Source: Nitrospirales bacterium (GTDB lineage Bacteria; Nitrospirota; Nitrospiria; Nitrospirales; UBA8639). Taken from it: 64,000 nucleotides of DNA. Shown piece by piece: positions 42,411-49,610 of this stretch (position 1 is the stretch's first letter; the number at the start of each line of letters is the position of its first letter). The notes under the pieces are model-generated. The model was given only the letters and a program-made list of their open reading frames with translations. It ran no database searches and was not told the DNA's origin. The stretch is taken from contig OY820905.2 of assembly GCA_963555755.3 (NCBI GenBank), forward strand, positions 3,552,001 through 3,616,000, written 5' to 3'. The position numbers and the translations under genes are program-made.

Positions 42411-44988
42411 CAATGGCATTCGTTTAAGGAATGGGCGGCATTCGTTTAAGGATTTGGCTCATTCGTTTAAGAAACGGATTCCATGTGCTTAAGGGACTTT
42501 CAGATAGAGGCCATCGACCCTGTGGGGTTCTTGGACTGGCTGTTCTTTTTGGGTGGATGCCACGTGGACTCCGGTTTCATGGATGTTCGAGGATAGGATC
42601 GGCCCGGCCTCACCCGTTGGTAGTGACTCACAATGGACTCGAAGGCCCGTTGGACGGCGGTCTGCATCCGAGCATGGAGCACGAGCAGATCTTCGAAGCT
42701 TCGCGCAAACACGTGAAGGCAATGTTTGAAGTTGGTCTTGAATGTCCGCCTCGCCCCGGTGCCGGTTCCAACTATGGACGATCCGGGAGGGGCCATGGGC
42801 TCAGCTGCGGGGGCTTCGGGATTGAGTGCGTGGTCCGCCCGATTGGCGAACAGCCGGTTCATGGTGATCAGGACGAAATGCGCGAAGAGCTCTTGTTTGA
42901 CGCCGCGCTCGGTTTTGGCATGAAACTCCTCGATGAGGAACAGGCGCTTGCTCACCTTGTAGAGTTCCTCGATGCCCCAACGGGCATGGTAGAGATCCAT
43001 GAACTCCTGGAGCGGATACCGCTGCTGGGGGCCGACCAGGGTGGTGCCCAAGCAAAATCGGCTGCCGGCCATCTCATATTTCAGAAGCCGCAGGCTCAAC
43101 GGGATGATGGCGAGATCAGGATAGACCGCCCGGATGTCTCGTTGCGTGCGTGCGGCGGGGAAGAGGGTGACCGTGGTGTCGGTGTCCGGGCCGGCAAAAA
43201 ACTCTTGAATCTCCTTGAACCCGCTGTCTTGGAGACGAAACACGGCGTGGATCCCGGCGGTCCAGTGCTGATGCAGCAGGACGTAGGAGAAATAGCCTCG
43301 ATCGTACACCACGACATCGTTGGGCTTCAGCACAGCCAGGTGCCGCAGGGCGCACCGTCGCTCGTTGCCATGCGCGACGAGGTCGAAATCCCAGGGCACT
43401 TGCGACGTGAGGTGGTAGAGGCAACTCAGCAACCCTTGAGGATAGTGTGCATTGTCAGAGGGCAAGGGGTAGCCACACGCCCGCAACGCGCGGGGCAGTG
43501 TAAGCTTGGAGCCATCGACGGCAAACACCCGATGGCCCAACCAGGTGTCGTTGGAGTCGTGTGGGGCATAGGCGTCCAGAATGTTCCGGTTGACGGACTG
43601 GAAAATGGCTTCGTCCAGTTTGCGACGTGCGACACAAAAGGACGCCGGCGCGATGCTGTGGGGTTGCGGGAGCGCGAGCGCCAGGTTGTCGCAACTGTCC
43701 CACAAGTCATCAATGGTGGTGCCGTAACTTTGGGAGTTGGTTGACGACACCAACCGAAAGATCAACAGCATCAGGATCAGGGAATCGATCACCCGTTTCC
43801 GGACGCGCCACTGGTCATCGTACTGGGCCGCCACGTCGTGGAGGATGTGGACCACCTGTTTCCACCAGGCGACAAACCCTTCCCCGACGGACCGTGTGCG
43901 ACTGGCTCGCACGTCGTTGCGATAGCGTGTCTTCACCGTGACGGCTCGATGCCCGGCAGTCAGGCACGCGCGCCAGTCGGGTTGGAGCGGATAGAGAAAA
44001 ATCTCTTTTGTCGTGGGTGGACGGTCCGACGTTGAGCCAAACCGCCCGCGCCCCTCGGTGTAGCCCACGAAGTGCCAATTGGCCGCTCGATAACAGGTCC
44101 CGGCAAACCGGGAGGGATCGATGAACGTTTCAATCAGCACCGGGCGATAACCGTAGACTTCAACCCAGTCGTCCCCGATCTGCTTGGTGGCCCGCGCCAG
44201 CACATGGCTGGCGAGATTCGGCACGTCAATCCACGGAAAGATCAAAAACCGATCATTGCGCAACACCAATGGCAGGAGCTTCCTCCGGTGCGTCACGTCC
44301 CAGCCAATCCAGTGATCTCTGGGGGCCAGCGCCCAGGCGGCCGAGGCCGAAAACAGCAGACAGCCCAGCGGGTACGGCTGGGCGGCCGATCTCACCAGAT
44401 AGCCCAGCTGGGCCCCGATCGGGTGTTTATAGCCCAAATAATGATAGGTCTGCAGGTAGGCTTTCCAGCTCTCGCGTTCCTCTTTCGAGACCACCCGGTG
44501 CAGGGTAATTGGGGCCACGGCGGCGAGGGTGTCGGTGAGTGGCTCGGTGGGGGGCGGCTCGTGAAACGCAGGGATGGGGTGTCCCGGCGCGCGCTTGTGG
44601 CGCGTGGCCGGCAGAGTCACGATCCCGTGCGCTTCCAGCTCGGTCAGCAAGGTCAAACAGGAATGAATCTTGTTGTGGCCCGTCGGCGTGGTCCAGCTGA
44701 GATGCTCACAGACGGTGAGGGCCAATTCCTTCCGACTCAGGTGGGGGAACAGCTGGACGGTTTCTTGGACCTGCGCCAACTGCTTGCGGGTGAACCGCCG
44801 CCCGCTAAAGGTCGTCTTGGGTAAGGTGTCCACAGTCTTCATCGAGGATAGTCTCTCAGAAGACGGAAAAGAAGTCAAGCGAAAAAGGACACCAGGGCGA
44901 CTTCGGTTCAGAAGCCCTGATCAATCAACCAGTTCCGCTGATAACAGAGAAGGCAGATTGTTCGTTCGAACCAAACCGAATGCCATTG
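42411..44988 (-). mobile_element. IS4-family element encoding a DUF4338-fused transposase
   Basis: TIRs CAATGGCATTCG(T/G)TT; 10-bp TSD GGCTTGGGGG (42401-42410 and 44989-44998). Confidence 0.93.
42500..44842 (-). CDS. DUF4338 plus IS4 DDE transposase fusion (~780 aa)
   Basis: YHYLGY..RDHWIGW..NLAS..ETFIDP..GTCYRAANW, then FAVDGS, YDRGYFS, YHARWGIEELYK, RPGRSYPR. Confidence 0.9.
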   Translation of the reverse strand: MKTVDTLPKTTFSGRRFTRKQLAQVQETVQLFPHLSRKELALTVCEHLSWTTPTGHNKIHSCLTLLTELEAHGIVTLPATRHKRAPGHPIPAFHEPPPTEPLTDTLAAVAPITLHRVVSKEERESWKAYLQTYHYLGYKHPIGAQLGYLVRSAAQPYPLGCLLFSASAAWALAPRDHWIGWDVTHRRKLLPLVLRNDRFLIFPWIDVPNLASHVLARATKQIGDDWVEVYGYRPVLIETFIDPSRFAGTCYRAANWHFVGYTEGRGRFGSTSDRPPTTKEIFLYPLQPDWRACLTAGHRAVTVKTRYRNDVRASRTRSVGEGFVAWWKQVVHILHDVAAQYDDQWRVRKRVIDSLILMLLIFRLVSSTNSQSYGTTIDDLWDSCDNLALALPQPHSIAPASFCVARRKLDEAIFQSVNRNILDAYAPHDSNDTWLGHRVFAVDGSKLTLPRALRACGYPLPSDNAHYPQGLLSCLYHLTSQVPWDFDLVAHGNERRCALRHLAVLKPNDVVVYDRGYFSYVLLHQHWTAGIHAVFRLQDSGFKEIQEFFAGPDTDTTVTLFPAARTQRDIRAVYPDLAIIPLSLRLLKYEMAGSRFCLGTTLVGPQQRYPLQEFMDLYHARWGIEELYKVSKRLFLIEEFHAKTERGVKQELFAHFVLITMNRLFANRADHALNPEAPAAEPMAPPGSSIVGTGTGARRTFKTNFKHCLHVFARSFEDLLVLHARMQTAVQRAFESIVSHYQRVRPGRSYPRTSMKPESTWHPPKKNSQSKNPTGSMASI

Positions 44989-45889
44989 GGCTTGGGGGTG
45001 GAGTGTCAGTCCTTGATCGAGGGTGTAGGCGGTGGTGAGGCTGAGCGCGGGGCTGAGGAAGCCGCTGTCAAAATCGGTGCGGGCTATTTCTATGCCGGCG
45101 AGGTTGTCGATGACCCGGCGGTGGTTGTCATGTTGTTCATAGCCGCCGAGTAGCGAGGCGGTGAGGGCTAAGGGGCCGAGGTGAATCTGCGCATAGCCAC
45201 CGACAAAGAGGCTGTCGGTATCGGTGCTAATGGATTGCCGTTCGGTGTCGATGTCAGACTGGGCAGCCCCGCCAAAGACACCGAGACGGGTGTGTTGGAC
45301 GTTGGTGTCGTAGCCGCCCATGAGGCCGGCGTAGTCGTGGTCGTAGGCGAGGGCCTGGCCTTCGGCGCCTCGATGGCGGTGGGCGCCGAAGAGTTGGCCC
45401 CATGCTTGCGAGGGGCGCGGCTGAACCAGGAGGCCGGGCGTGAGTCGGATCGTGGCAAGTTGTATCTTGGCGGGGGCCGGTTGGGTCAGGCGGTGTTGGA
45501 TTTGTTCATGGAGGCCACCAGTGAAGGTCGCGAGGACGGCACTGTGAACGGATTGTCCTGTGGGGTCGACGAGGGTGGCGACGGTGCCGTTGTGTATCCC
45601 GGCAACGCCATTGAGGAGGTTGATGGTCTCGGCATTGTCCAAGGTCAGTGTGGCGGAGGGGTTGGCGCCGTAGATGTTGACGGTGTCGTTGCCACCAGCT
45701 AAATCTATACGGCCGATGATGTGCGAGCCGCGATAGAGATTGAGCGTTTCGGCACCGGTTCCCCCCAGGATAGCGGTGGTGGCGTTGCCGGTGGCTGAGA
45801 TGAGGCCGTGGTTGTAGATGGTGGTGGTGTTTCCGGCCCCGTCGGCAGAAATCCCCACCGCATCGGGGCCGGTGACGTTAATGCTGCCG

Positions 45890-46510
45890 CTGTTCGTTAT
45901 CGTGGCGTTGTCGCCTATTGACCGGATGCCGTGAGCACCCTCACCAATCGTCGAGATGGTCCCGCTGGTCGTTATCGTGGCGTTGTCGGCTTCTGACTGA
46001 ATGCCGCTAGCATTGTTACCCGTCGTCGAGATGGTCCCGCTGGTCGTTATCGTGGCGTTGACGCGTTCTGACTGGATGCCGCTAGCATTGTTACCCGTCG
46101 TCGAGATGGTCCCGCTGGTCGTTATTGTGGCGTTGTCGCCGAATGACTGGATGCCGCTAGCATTGAAACCCGTCGTCGAGATGGTCCCGCTGGTCGTTAT
46201 CGTGGCGTCGTCGCCTCCTGACTGGATGCCGTTAGCACCGTCACGCGTCGTCGAGATGGTCCCGCTGGTCGTTATCGTGGCGTCGTCGCCTTCTGACTGG
46301 ATGCCGCTAGCATTGGTACCCGCCGTGGAGATGGTCCCGCTGGTCGTTATCGTGGCGTTGTCGCGGACTGACTGGATGCCGTGAGCCCCGGTACCCGCCG
46401 TGGAGATGGTCCCGCTGGTCGTTATCGTGGCGTCGTCGCCGAGTGACTGGATGCCGTGAGCATTGCCACCCGTCGTCGAGATGGTCCCGCTGGTCGTTAT
46501 TGTGACGTTG
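45890..46510 (-). repeat. 8 x 75-bp (25-aa) coding tandem repeat TITTSGTISTxGxxAxGIQSxxDxA
   Basis: GAGATGGTCCCGCTGGTCGTTAT recurs every 75 bp from 45953 to 46478. Confidence 0.93.
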
Positions 46511-47349
46511 TCGGCGGTTGACGCGATGCCGAAACCGCCTGCCACATTAAGCTGCCCCCCAGCCTCGATCACCCCGGTTTCATTGTCGTTGTCGAGCGTC
46601 TGCGTCGTGGTCTCCACCTGCCCCTCGCTAATCGTAAACGAATCTGCCTGGACACGGGCTGTAGCACCCCCTATCACGATTATCAGACAGACACTCAACG
46701 CGGCCTGTGTATATTTCATATTGGGACCTGGCCTCCACTATATCCATTTTATGGATGTTCATTGGACCTATGATGACAATCTACTCCATGTCAAATAAAT
46801 ATATATGAACCGAAATAATAAGGCAATCAATCATTGCTTATAACCATTTTTGCCACCACAATAGGTATTTTTACACTATGGTCGGTCTGCAGGAGTCGCT
46901 CATCGGGCTGAAACCAAAACGGTCCTTCTCAGCCCGCATCTTCATTGAAACTAGAAACGGCAGTTGGGCGCAAAAAAGACGTGGAAGCTATTGGCGTGCA
47001 TGGTGAAATACAAAAAGTCGTGGTCACCTTAGGTCTGTCATTTCGAGTGCAAGGAGAAATCTCTTGGCCCGAAAGAACGTGACCCGGGCGGGAATGGGGG
47101 AGAGTTCCTCGAAGGGTCGAAATGACAACGGACGACGTGTGATACGGGCGAAGCGTAATAGAGTTTAGCCTACCTCCACCAAAATTGAGATTGATCCGGA
47201 ATGTTCAAAAAGGCCGTCCAGTCCTGTCCTGAGCCATGTCGAAGGGAAGGCCGCAGGGCTTTTGGCGAGTGGAGTGTACACGGAGTACGTGAGCACGCCA
47301 AAAGCCCGACCTGCCTGCGCGAAGCCGCTTTCAGCCTTATATAATACTC

Positions 47350-47560
47350 TGGAGTTTTTGTGTTAGGGTTTTTCTTTTTATTCATTGTACCGGACTCCGG
47401 GAGCTTGCTGGGTCGAGGACCATTCCGGCCTGAGCCCTGATGAGGCTCATACGAAGACTGTCCCGCCCAGTCAAGGAACGGCGTGAGACGTTCCATAGGA
47501 AGTTGTCCCACTGAGGACCGATATAAGGCAAACGAGCCGTTCGCGCTTCTGGGAAGGGTC
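47350..47560 (+). ncRNA. predicted IS110 bridge RNA
   Basis: Target loop TTCCGGCCT / hairpin / TACGAAG and donor loop CCATAGGAAGT / hairpin / ATATAAG match the flanking target and the circle junction. Confidence 0.8.
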
Positions 47561-47577
47561 CAAGAAAGGAGAGACGG

Positions 47578-48801
47578 ATGCCACGGTATTACATGGGAGT
47601 GGATTGGGGCGATGAGCAGCATGGGGTCTGTGTGCGAGAGGAGGCGGGCTCCATTGTGTGGGAGGACCTGGTACCCCACACGCCGAAGGGTTTGCAGGAG
47701 TGGGGACGGCGTTTGGATACCTGGCGTGCTGCGGGGATCGAGCTGTGGGCGGCCATTGAGCGACCCGAGGGGCGGGTGGTGGAGTTCTTGTTGGATCATG
47801 GGGTGGTGGTGTATCCGATGAATCCGAAAGCGCTGGATCGGGCTCGGGATCGCTTCCGTATGAGTCCGTCGAACAGCGATGGCTTTGATGGGCGGGTGCT
47901 GGCCGAGGTGCTGCGAACCGATCATGCCCATCTCCGGCCGCTGCAGCCCAGTTCGGAGGCCGCGCAAGAATTGAAACTCCTCACCCGGGATCATAAGCGC
48001 TTGCAGCAACAACAAACCCGGGGCCTGAACCAACTCACGAGCACGCTGAAGGACTACTATCCCCGGGTGCTGGACCTGTTTGGCGACCTGACCACGCAGG
48101 TGGCCCTGGATTTTCTGCAAACCTATCCGACCCCGGCCGCGTTGACGACAGTGCGGCAGAGTCAGTGGCAGCGTTTTGCGCGTGCGCATCGGCTGGGGCC
48201 GGCGCGCACGGCGGAGTTGTGGGACGAGCTCAAGGCGCCCCAGATGCCCGTCCCCGCACATGTGGTGCGGACCAAGGCCCGGCTGATGGGCGTGCTGGTC
48301 GGCCAGGTTTTGCTCGCTCACCGAGCCGTGCGGGAGTATCACACGGAGATCGAACGTTTTTTCGCGACCCTCCCGGCGGCTGAGTGGATGCAGAGTCTGC
48401 CGGGAGGGAAAAGTGGGACCACGATTCCCAGTGTGTGGGCCGAACTGGGCGATGCTCCGGGCCGCTGGACCTCGTGGGCTCACCTGCAGGCGGAAGCGGG
48501 GACCGTGCCCGTCACGCGGCAGAGTGGCAAAAGTTGCGTGGTGCGGTTCCGCTTTGCGTGTAACAAGTCCCTGCGGCAGGCCATCTGGTGGGTGGCCTTT
48601 CAGTCGCTGACCCAGAGTGAGTGGGCCAAGAGTGACTATCAGCAGTGTCGGGCTCGCGGGCACCGGCATAATCAGGCGATGCGCGCCTTGGGGGCGAAAT
48701 GGCTGAAAATCATTTTTCGGATGTGGCAGCATCAGGTTCCCTATGATGAGCAATATCATGTAGCAAACATGACCAAGCAATACCTACGTGCAACTGCGTA
48801 A
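47578..48801 (+). CDS. IS110-family recombinase
   Basis: RuvC-like GVDWG, AIE, SDGFD; C-terminal VPVTRQSGKS catalytic-Ser motif; AGGAG RBS. Confidence 0.95.
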   Translation: MPRYYMGVDWGDEQHGVCVREEAGSIVWEDLVPHTPKGLQEWGRRLDTWRAAGIELWAAIERPEGRVVEFLLDHGVVVYPMNPKALDRARDRFRMSPSNSDGFDGRVLAEVLRTDHAHLRPLQPSSEAAQELKLLTRDHKRLQQQQTRGLNQLTSTLKDYYPRVLDLFGDLTTQVALDFLQTYPTPAALTTVRQSQWQRFARAHRLGPARTAELWDELKAPQMPVPAHVVRTKARLMGVLVGQVLLAHRAVREYHTEIERFFATLPAAEWMQSLPGGKSGTTIPSVWAELGDAPGRWTSWAHLQAEAGTVPVTRQSGKSCVVRFRFACNKSLRQAIWWVAFQSLTQSEWAKSDYQQCRARGHRHNQAMRALGAKWLKIIFRMWQHQVPYDEQYHVANMTKQYLRATA

Positions 48802-49610
48802 ACAAAAAGAACTTGACAACCCCATAGGAAGTCTTCGTAGCTCACTTCGGCGAAGTAGGCTCGGCAGGCAAGGAACGCGCTGGCTGGCCTGCCGAAGCCT
48901 TGGCGAAGGCTGGCGGCCCTTTTGAACATTCCCCGAAAAGGATCGGAAGATCTGGCCAATTCCAGCGCACCCGCAGTAGATCCGTCTCATCTTGGACAGG
49001 CTCCTACGTGCGTCAAGAGCTTGCGCGGACTTTTGTGATCCCACTGCGGTTTCTAAGTTGAACATGTCCGTGGACGAATCGGAGGTACGCTGACAGGGGA
49101 TTTATTGGTGGGCGATGCCCACCCTACCAATTCATATATGGGGAGGGCACGATAAGATCGTGCAGCGACACAAGAAAGAATGCTCATGCGAAGGAGAGGC
49201 AGGGGCAAGAAGTTCCCTGTATTCAGATTGAGATGGCGGTAGGGGTAGAACCATGAATTCTGTATGATCCCCTTTTTTGCGCCCACCTACCGTTTCTAGG
49301 TTCAACCTCATCCGCGCCGGCCAGAAGTCGCATCCTCCTATCGGAATAGGACAATACAGAAGCCTTAGACAGACCTTGCATGACAACGGGAAAGAATTGA
49401 AACGTTGCGGGGAAAGATTTGCGAGATCAGGTGCGGAAGATACGTGGGCGGAAAACGGTCAGTTTGAGGTAGAAGCAAATTTTGGGTCTTCTCCCAACCG
49501 AGTGGGTAGATTTGAGTGAGAAACTTTCTGAAAGGCTTGCCAAGGAAGAGGTTGGTGGGTTTTCTACCGGGAGAACAGTGGCCCAAATTTCTTGAAGCTT
49601 CACGCTGGTC

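Follow-up and report, generated by a model that had tools for sequence, protein, structure and literature searches.

An IS110-group element in a REP-like repeat of a Nitrospirales bacterium and the predicted bridge RNA that likely guides it

Copy A, its boundaries and its recombinase

We analysed a 64,000-nucleotide stretch of the genome of a Nitrospirales bacterium (contig OY820905.2 of assembly GCA_963555755.3, positions 3,552,001 to 3,616,000), called the window below and used for all coordinates unless stated otherwise. In this window an insertion sequence of the IS110 group, which we call copy A, interrupts a composite intergenic repeat whose left and right parts lie at 47247..47335 and 48835..48935 (both +). 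Copy A occupies 47336..48834 (+), from the CT at 47336-47337 through the CT at 48833-48834, and measures 1499 bp including both CT cores. At the left junction, TTTCAGC-CT-TATAT from 47329, the left target TTTCAGC (47329..47335, +, positions 1-7), which is host repeat DNA, meets the left CT core and the right donor TATAT (47336..47342, +, donor positions 10-14). At the right junction, AGGAAGT-CT-TCGTA from 48826, the left donor ATAGGAAGT and the right CT core (48824..48834, +) are followed by the right target TCGTA (48835..48839, +), again repeat DNA; a hairpin, ACTTC-GGC-GAAGT, lies in the right part of the repeat on the 3' side of the recognised 14 bp. The joined flanks aligned with an empty homologue in the same genome (G000:C1:1285212-1285019) at 173 of 195 positions (89%), gap-free over the junction, and the paralogues B and C described below part from copy A exactly at the CT on both sides. 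Because of this alignment and this divergence, the boundaries are supported independently of the guides. An earlier, sequence-only reading had placed an IS110 element at 47330..48845 and held that its removal restores the target; the element and the restored target stand, and the junction sequences move the ends to 47336 and 48834.

As in the IS110 family, copy A is inserted at a short CT core without other target change, and its ends have only CT and ATA/TAT in common, without long terminal inverted repeats. The non-coding ends measure 242 bp on the left and 33 bp on the right, which is the layout of the IS110 group as opposed to the IS1111 group. The short sub-terminal repeat (TAT at donor positions 12-14) is of the ATA/TAT type here and in 25 of 74 loci, and AGA/TAC in 49.

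The recombinase gene (47578..48801, +) encodes 407 aa with a RuvC-like DEDD tetrad (D9/E61/D101/D104), a coiled coil with a helical insert (~161-226), a Tnp domain with S316 and a putative wedge (W337/W338/F341). Pfam assigned PF01548 with 95.3 bits (cut-off 29) and PF02371 with 35 bits (21.3). A sequence search among solved structures matched ISCro4 and IS621 exclusively (ISCro4 weakly, E 2.7e-8). The predicted model had a pLDDT of 82.7 and its ten best fold matches were all chains of IS621 or ISCro4 complexes (E 2e-12 to 5e-11, 18-19% identity); in this model the extra length of the protein forms a cluster of short helices (~161-226) separating two long helices. Among 120 listed of 1887 homologues found, D9, E61, D104 and S316 were kept in all 120 and D101 in 119. 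In a sequence alignment to the solved structure (PMC11208158), W337, W338 and F341 align with the IS621 wedge residues Y264, M265 and M268. Transposases of about 390-400 aa from IS110 elements on plasmids of Actinobacteria and Proteobacteria belong to the same length class and align over 95-99% of the protein, but at 32-38% identity and with no element name among the 25 matches listed. IS110, IS116 and IS900 are of this length class.

A predicted bridge RNA and its guides

The left end of copy A holds a predicted bridge RNA of about 190 nt (47351..47545, +), whose start and end are inferred and which opens with a weak 5' stem (47351-47357 with 47392-47398). The target-binding module (47407..47471, +) consists of an outer stem (47407-47420 with 47460-47471) and an inner hairpin (GAGCC 47432-47436 with GGCTC 47444-47448). 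It carries the left target guide TTCCGGCCT (47423..47431, +), covering positions 1-9 with a mismatch at 3 and a G:T wobble at 5 relative to the occupied site, and the right target guide TACGAAG (47450..47456, +), a 7/7 complement of CTTCGTA. The donor-binding module (47476..47542, +) has an outer stem (47476-47482 with 47536-47542), an inner stem (CGTT 47489-47492 with AACG 47531-47534) and a hairpin (GTCC 47505-47508 with GGAC 47515-47518). Its left donor guide ATAGGAAGT (47495..47504, +) corresponds to donor positions -1 to 7, and the next base, at core position 8, is T (U:G wobble); its right donor guide ATATAAG (47521..47527, +) is a contiguous 7/7 complement of CTTATAT. All guide strings quoted by the sequence-only reading were found where it had put them: TTCCGGCCT at 47423-47431, TACGAAG at 47450-47456, CCATAGGAAGT at 47493-47503, with a second copy at 48822-48832, and ATATAAG at 47521-47527. 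The last nine bases of the 11-base donor-loop match that it had reported are conserved, while the preceding base is matched in 5 of 74 loci only.

Single-sequence folding of the copy A RNA gave no structure more stable than shuffles (z -1.11; second run, z -0.26), and an Rfam search over 46800-49500 returned nothing beyond a chance match (E 0.92). In an alignment of 43 related RNAs, 98.3% of cells were paired, compared to 90.4% after shuffling and 19-47% in slid controls, and none of 500 shuffles scored as high. Double-sided changes occurred in 11 of 27 pairs of this alignment; the two-loop structure was derived from the same 43 RNAs, which biases the comparison in its favour over slid versions. 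The inner donor stem (CGTT/AACG in copy A) pairs 4/4 in 37 of the 43 RNAs. These results point to conservation of the two stem-enclosed loops with their inner hairpins, as judged from covariation and not from a single fold, and bear out the IS621-type layout (PMC11208158, PMC11208160) first proposed from the letters of copy A. The three exact guide 7-mers occurred jointly in none of 20000 dinucleotide shuffles of the left end (singly in 378, 102 and 684), while the 7/9 left-target match alone is weak, being present in 6350 of the 20000.

That last count and the unremarkable single-sequence fold would suit an explanation in which the matches arose by chance or by passive duplication of the ends and the protein itself reads the target. 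Guides and flanks were compared among relatives, taken from loci fetched from genomes and from the best 80 of 327 metagenome relatives. The set of 113 loci comprised 111 with a protein match; 103 remained after removal of 8 double fetches, and 85 target loops fitted the scaffold anchors. Fragments and distant relatives make up the unparsed loci, among them L021-L024 (33-38%), excluded because the anchors did not fit them. The closest named relatives are Nitrospira and Nitrospiraceae records, at 77-79%. A DNA search of 401 genomes of the phylum gave one partial relative outside the genome of copy A, an RNA-model search of 61 genomes gave no loci beyond those already in the set, and Nitrospira is not mentioned among the literature matches listed.

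The right target guide matched its own flank at 7/7 positions in 55 of 75 loci, at 6/7 in 16, at 5/7 in 2, at 4/7 in 1 and at 2/7 in 1. With one locus for each of 19 distinct right guides, positions 10-14 matched at 4.63 of 5 compared to 1.77 when shuffled (maximum of 3000 shuffles, 3.0); the match ended at position 14, positions 15 and 16 being at chance level. The 36 distinct left guides also track their own flanks. In the register of copy A, defined below (12 loci, 11 guides), positions 1, 2, 4, 5 and 6 of the left target guide exceeded shuffles (p up to 0.015), while position 3 showed no covariation (0.27 vs 0.27), which fits the mismatch of copy A at that position. In 75/75 loci the nine-base left donor guide is identical to the right end, in three variants. 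The right donor guide tracks the left end in 85 of 87 loci (duplicates still included), the remaining two having a G:U wobble at a CG core. None of the three donor motifs turned up in the parts of the PMC11208160 supplements searched, where gapped alignments can hide motifs. Right guides are moreover reverse complements of their flanks, not copies of them, and the stems covary, so we count chance or end duplication as refuted by the right-guide/flank tests unless the parsing is wrong, and regard it as extremely improbable. Covariation of guide and target among homologues, the absence of which the sequence-only reading had named as grounds for abandoning its proposal, is thus present, and the sites of other copies are spelled by each copy's own guides. 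We infer that the system is programmable from this natural covariation and from IS621.

Three loci carry natural cores other than CT: CG at both ends in L092, CG on the left and CA on the right in L073, and CT on the left and CG on the right in L029. The right guides of L073 and L092 have changed to match their non-CT cores.

Target repeat, paralogues and proposed transposition cycle

The guide had been described as tuned to an abundant GCCTTCG repeat unit; this unit is not enriched in the genome, with 1002 occurrences against 964 expected, but GCCTTCGTAGC is, with 27 against 1.7. By our search pattern the target repeat family has about 31 copies including that of copy A, a moderate abundance. 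Targeting of a genomic repeat stands, but the occupied TTTCAGC site matches the guide less well than the TCCCGGC subfamily does. The guide of copy A spells TTCCGGC-CT-TCGTA, a 14-mer absent from the genome in its perfect form; 17 TCCCGGCCTTCGTA sites (TCCCGGC-CT-TCGTA) differ from it by one U:G wobble and all are empty, and the TTTCAGC subfamily has 6 empty copies. From these comparisons the occupied TTTCAGC site appears to be a tolerated near-match, the best predicted sites being the TCCCGGC-CT-TCGTA repeats. Relatives that carry the same right guide are found within the target repeat family. The guide of L030 (73% aa) is perfect for TCCCGGC-CT-TCGTAGC, and L030 is inserted there. L093 (89%) shares these guides, and its sequence includes no flanks. 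Sequencing run X9 includes a contig, differing at 4 of 148 bases, whose left flank is of the majority subfamily, and two right-end contigs that continue into other repeat copies; these place a close relative in majority-type copies. In run X15 the element forms one 1519-base contig ending at the element ends, a stop that would be expected of a multi-copy element. A contig of run X4 begins at 47337, which may point to a second left context. In its left flank, L030 carries both repeat subfamilies in tandem (TTTCAGCCTTCGTAGC then TCCCGGCCTTCGTAGC), with the insertion at the perfectly matching one.

Targeting of extragenic palindromic repeats by the IS110 family is already known (PMC1525189). We call the repeat REP-like only, since proximity counts did not establish a tie to a REP-associated tyrosine transposase flanked by the repeat: 2 of 31 copies lie within 1 kb of one of the 17 Y1_Tnp (PF01797) matches (0.9% expected) and none flank the gene on both sides. 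Genome-wide, many composite intergenic repeats are built from CTTCG/CGAAG hairpin modules, alongside the 17 Y1_Tnp matches.

Two paralogues of copy A are present in the genome. Paralogue B has 83% DNA identity to copy A and a frameshift near codon 23; paralogue C has 78%, an open frame and K at residue 99. All three have the donor ATAGGAAGT-CT-TATAT in common and are inserted in three different repeat families. Their right target guides are exact complements of their own flanks (A, TACGAAG; B, CCCGAAG for CTTCGGG; C, AGGACAG for CTGTCCT), and their left target guides match 7, 8 and 7 of 9 positions for A, B and C. Because the donor is shared, A, B and C can likely move one another. Remnant D (L126:439-690; G000:C1:3130938 onwards) retains the left end and first codons of an element of the same family; its left target guide and half its hairpin are deleted, and it is cut off by a repeat like the target of B. 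Among the 150 of 1023 candidates scored in the genome, the RNA model R1 found A, B, C and D and no further stand-alone bridge RNA. Two end-like motifs (G000:C1:3919182 and 3919559) were rejected as an element, being outward-facing and without an R1 match.

Two features that the sequence-only reading had not described bear on the reaction itself. The first is the presence of handshake bases, as handshake guides are defined in PMC11208158. In the target loop, AC (47457..47458, +) is complementary to donor T7 and G6 (AC in 71/85 loci, AG in 14/85); in the donor loop, GC (47528..47529, +) is complementary to target C7 and G6. Over guide/target classes, the donor-loop G pairs with target C7 in 41 of 43. 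The second donor-loop base tracks target position 6 (Fisher p 0.004): where it is C, the target has G6 in 31 of 39 classes, and where it is G, in 0 of 4. The donor's T7 is present in the two exceptions at position 7 (L009, L046) and in one X9 flank, three cases in all, a weak sign of heteroduplex repair. At position 5, a third handshake pair was looked for and rejected, as no pattern emerged. In copy A position 6 is G in both partners, so that direction would come from position 7 alone. The second feature is a putative promoter: a -35 box TTGACA in the right end (48813..48818, +) and a -10 box TATAAT (47340..47345, +) form TTGACA-18-TATAAT, a consensus promoter by sequence, solely when the ends are joined, and the linear locus has no sigma-70-type consensus site. 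A TTGACA and a TAnnnT box at 17-18 bases are present in 78 of 81 joined ends (duplicates still included).

On this basis, we propose that copy A is an IS110-group element at a CT in a REP-like repeat, and that the predicted bridge RNA of its left end very probably guides the recombinase to the repeat by base pairing, in a cycle like that of IS621. The ends, the shared CT core, the catalytic residues, the four guide segments, the handshake bases and the guide-flank covariation are read directly in the DNA; the steps from transcription to strand exchange are modelled on IS621 (PMC11208160, PMC11208158, PMC13626964). Rare read-through transcription would allow the formation of a circle, whose joined-end promoter TTGACA-18-TATAAT would drive the RNA and the recombinase. 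A recombinase tetramer would bind the target loop and the donor loop, and the top strands would be cut after CT via S316. Strand exchange would be aided by the handshake pairs, with A to donor T7 and G to target C7 setting direction and position 6 neutral, and resolution would take place on the bottom strands.

Several observations weigh against this proposal. The NCBIfam equivalog NF033542 matched with 132.2 bits, below its cut-off of 140 (E 2.4e-38, profile 1-342 of 343 covered). The right guide matched at 5/7 or fewer positions in 4/75 loci. Donor guides changed in about three events, mapped by eye on a quick tree of 44 rows. The loci are kin, so permutation tests overstate, and parsing selected those anchored to the scaffold (85/103). 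No end-to-end circle joint was listed in contigs of 7 runs, which is no evidence either way as contigs drop rare forms. Copy A is a single copy with all 17 better sites empty, and its protein has two private changes: K99N, where 119/120 homologues have K and which lies next to the catalytic D101, and Y353D, where Y is found in 112/120 homologues and D in none. Codon 99 is K in the relatives from runs X9 and X15.

The private changes put the activity of the enzyme of copy A in doubt, in a frame that is whole; of the earlier description of the recombinase as intact, the reading frame and the catalytic residues hold, while K99N and Y353D speak against it. Copy A could then be a disabled enzyme with a good guide, placed earlier or in trans and now mobile only by the protein of paralogue C. 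Besides the two substitutions and the empty sites, the frameshift of B and the decay of D are in line with such a history. Conversely, the open frame, the DEDD tetrad, the serine, the wedge, the ends, the promoter boxes and all guides are retained, and excision of IS621 is itself rare (PMC13626964), so a low copy number does not necessarily imply an inactive enzyme. We consider such inactivation a serious possibility that falls somewhat short of even likelihood; it concerns copy A and not the family.

A second question is how the circle arises. Guiding could operate as described while the circle is copied out as one strand through recognition of the donor arm alone, with no double-strand excision. 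This route has been reported for IS621 in a cell-free system (10.64898/2026.08.31.748434) and raised for CazIS110-1, and it would make the imperfect left-target match matter less; post-excision junctions at native IS621 loci (PMC13626964) speak for cutting out. The present data do not separate the two routes, and we regard copying out as the unlikely one.

A third concerns the target hairpin, which might act as a second gate on target choice, as reported for ISPpu10 (10.64898/2026.03.19.712850). A, B and C each lie in a different repeat family and some empty targets fold (z -1.7 for copy A, -3.0 for C, -2.1 for L030). However, z falls below -2 for only 4 of the clade's 37 rebuilt targets (mean -0.58), so we rejected a hairpin target as a rule of the clade, and the hairpin lies 3' of the recognised site here but over the left target in ISPpu10. 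A requirement for the hairpin in addition to base pairing is in our view improbable.

Guide register, known systems and neighbouring observations

The target loop has a 10-nt 5' strand in every parsed locus (a length fixed by the parser and gap-free in the alignment), and this strand is read in two registers. In register I (12 loci including copy A) the guide ends in CT and covers positions 1-9. In register II (64 of 76 loci) it covers positions 0-7, and core position 8 is C in just 12 of 25 guides. Position 0 of register II matched at 0.69 compared to 0.24 when shuffled (17 guide clusters, 0/5000 shuffles). Besides the Nitrospira group, L101 and L106 also use register I, and the quick tree implies at least three switches. 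Every parsed donor loop conforms to the register II type. In copy A the left donor guide is followed by TG instead of CT, and among 83 loci position 8 is G in 44, T in 16, C in 15 and A in 8. In IS621 the core is part of all four pairings (PMC11208160) and the left donor guide covers positions 1-8 after a GG linker (PMC11208158). We tentatively suggest, while leaning slightly towards the contrary, that the 407-aa clade reads DNA in a different register: its left guides would reach 1-2 bases further upstream than those of IS621, with the core unpaired on the bottom strand, the target guide would slide by one base in a fixed 10-nt strand, and the RNA would be naturally 7-nt and handshake-complete. 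Against this, position -1 of register II did not differ significantly from shuffles (0.38 vs 0.23, p 0.065), the extra matches may persist from an origin of the guides by flank copying, and the target loop of copy A is itself in an IS621-like register. A shifted register was not found in the literature searched or in the parts of the PMC11208160 supplements consulted; the 72 orthologues of 10.1101/2025.05.14.653916 may include a member of the clade. If true, it would imply a site of 15-16 bp with a freer core, and A, B and C with their one donor would form a natural multi-address system; provided that the pairing is real, site length and choice of core would follow other design rules in this branch.

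Copy A resembles IS621 (PMC11208160, PMC11208158, PMC13626964; PDB 8wt6-8wt9) in the order of target loop then donor loop in a left-end RNA, the CT core, the ATA/TAT repeat, the junction promoter, the handshake bases, the DEDD and serine active site, the hydrophobic wedge and the repeat target. It differs in sequence (18-19% identity in the fold alignment) and in length, 407 aa compared to 326 aa, the coiled-coil helices being separated by a helical insert. Its right target guide is naturally 7 nt, against 4 nt in IS621, where longer guides are noted in orthologues; its right donor guide is contiguous and not discontinuous; its left donor guide runs from -1 to 7 and does not cover the full core, against 1-8; and all four handshake bases could pair after exchange, a state that was engineered in IS621. 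Since the core is not in all guide pairings, the right donor guide is contiguous and the protein has 407 aa and not ~326, copy A, an IS110-group element that would work like IS621, lies outside the narrow IS621-like clade.

With ISCro4/IS622 (10.1101/2025.05.14.653916; PDB 9t56) it shares recognition of 14 bases of target and donor around a CT core and handshake guides; ISCro4 belongs to the IS621-like clade (88% to IS621), while the protein of copy A matches it weakly (E 2.7e-8). Like ISPpu10, ISPpu9, ISPa11 and other REP-targeting elements (PMC1525189; 10.64898/2026.03.19.712850), copy A is inserted in a family of intergenic palindromic repeats; repeat and host are different, and no target hairpin extends over the present clade (4/37). 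The ISEc21/ISMch6 seekRNA pair (PMC11187229) likewise illustrates natural retargeting by guide changes between related elements, whereas here a single genome contains three paralogues that address three targets with one donor, and the sample comprised 19 right guides. That bridge RNAs can target palindromic repeats is already established, and the element itself is not surprising. Its value is that of a readable distant orthologue (~19% identity to IS621) in which the right guides are naturally 7 bases long, the donor guide is contiguous and the handshake bases are complete, in a branch for which 19 natural right guides and two left-guide registers are now decoded.

Further observations concern the samples, the genome and the neighbourhood of copy A. 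In runs X2 and X3, a short variant contig differs over window positions 47440-47451, with the right target guide CCCGAAG, as in B, and a hairpin loop unlike that of B; by its sequence it appears to represent another guide allele in these samples. The RNA run X19 gave thin, patchy cover and was uninformative on expression. Other IS110-family elements occur in the genome (G000:C1; L136-L147, L149-L153), which has 21 PF01548 matches in all; they include 12 near-identical copies of a 343-aa type and three copies of a 391-aa type without R1 match. Adjoining remnant D, in a composite repeat, lies a short group II intron (L126:842-1510, -; Rfam RF00029, RF01998, RF02001) of ~670 bases, too short for the usual intron protein. 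Upstream of copy A in the window, a 792-aa frame (42500-44878, -) combines an IS4-family DDE transposase with a DruA domain (PF14236), and a 603-aa autotransporter-like frame (44908-46719, -) contains about eight 26-aa repeats. The beta-domain match of the latter ends at profile position 146/255, just before the DruA-DDE frame, so the autotransporter-like frame may be cut by that element.

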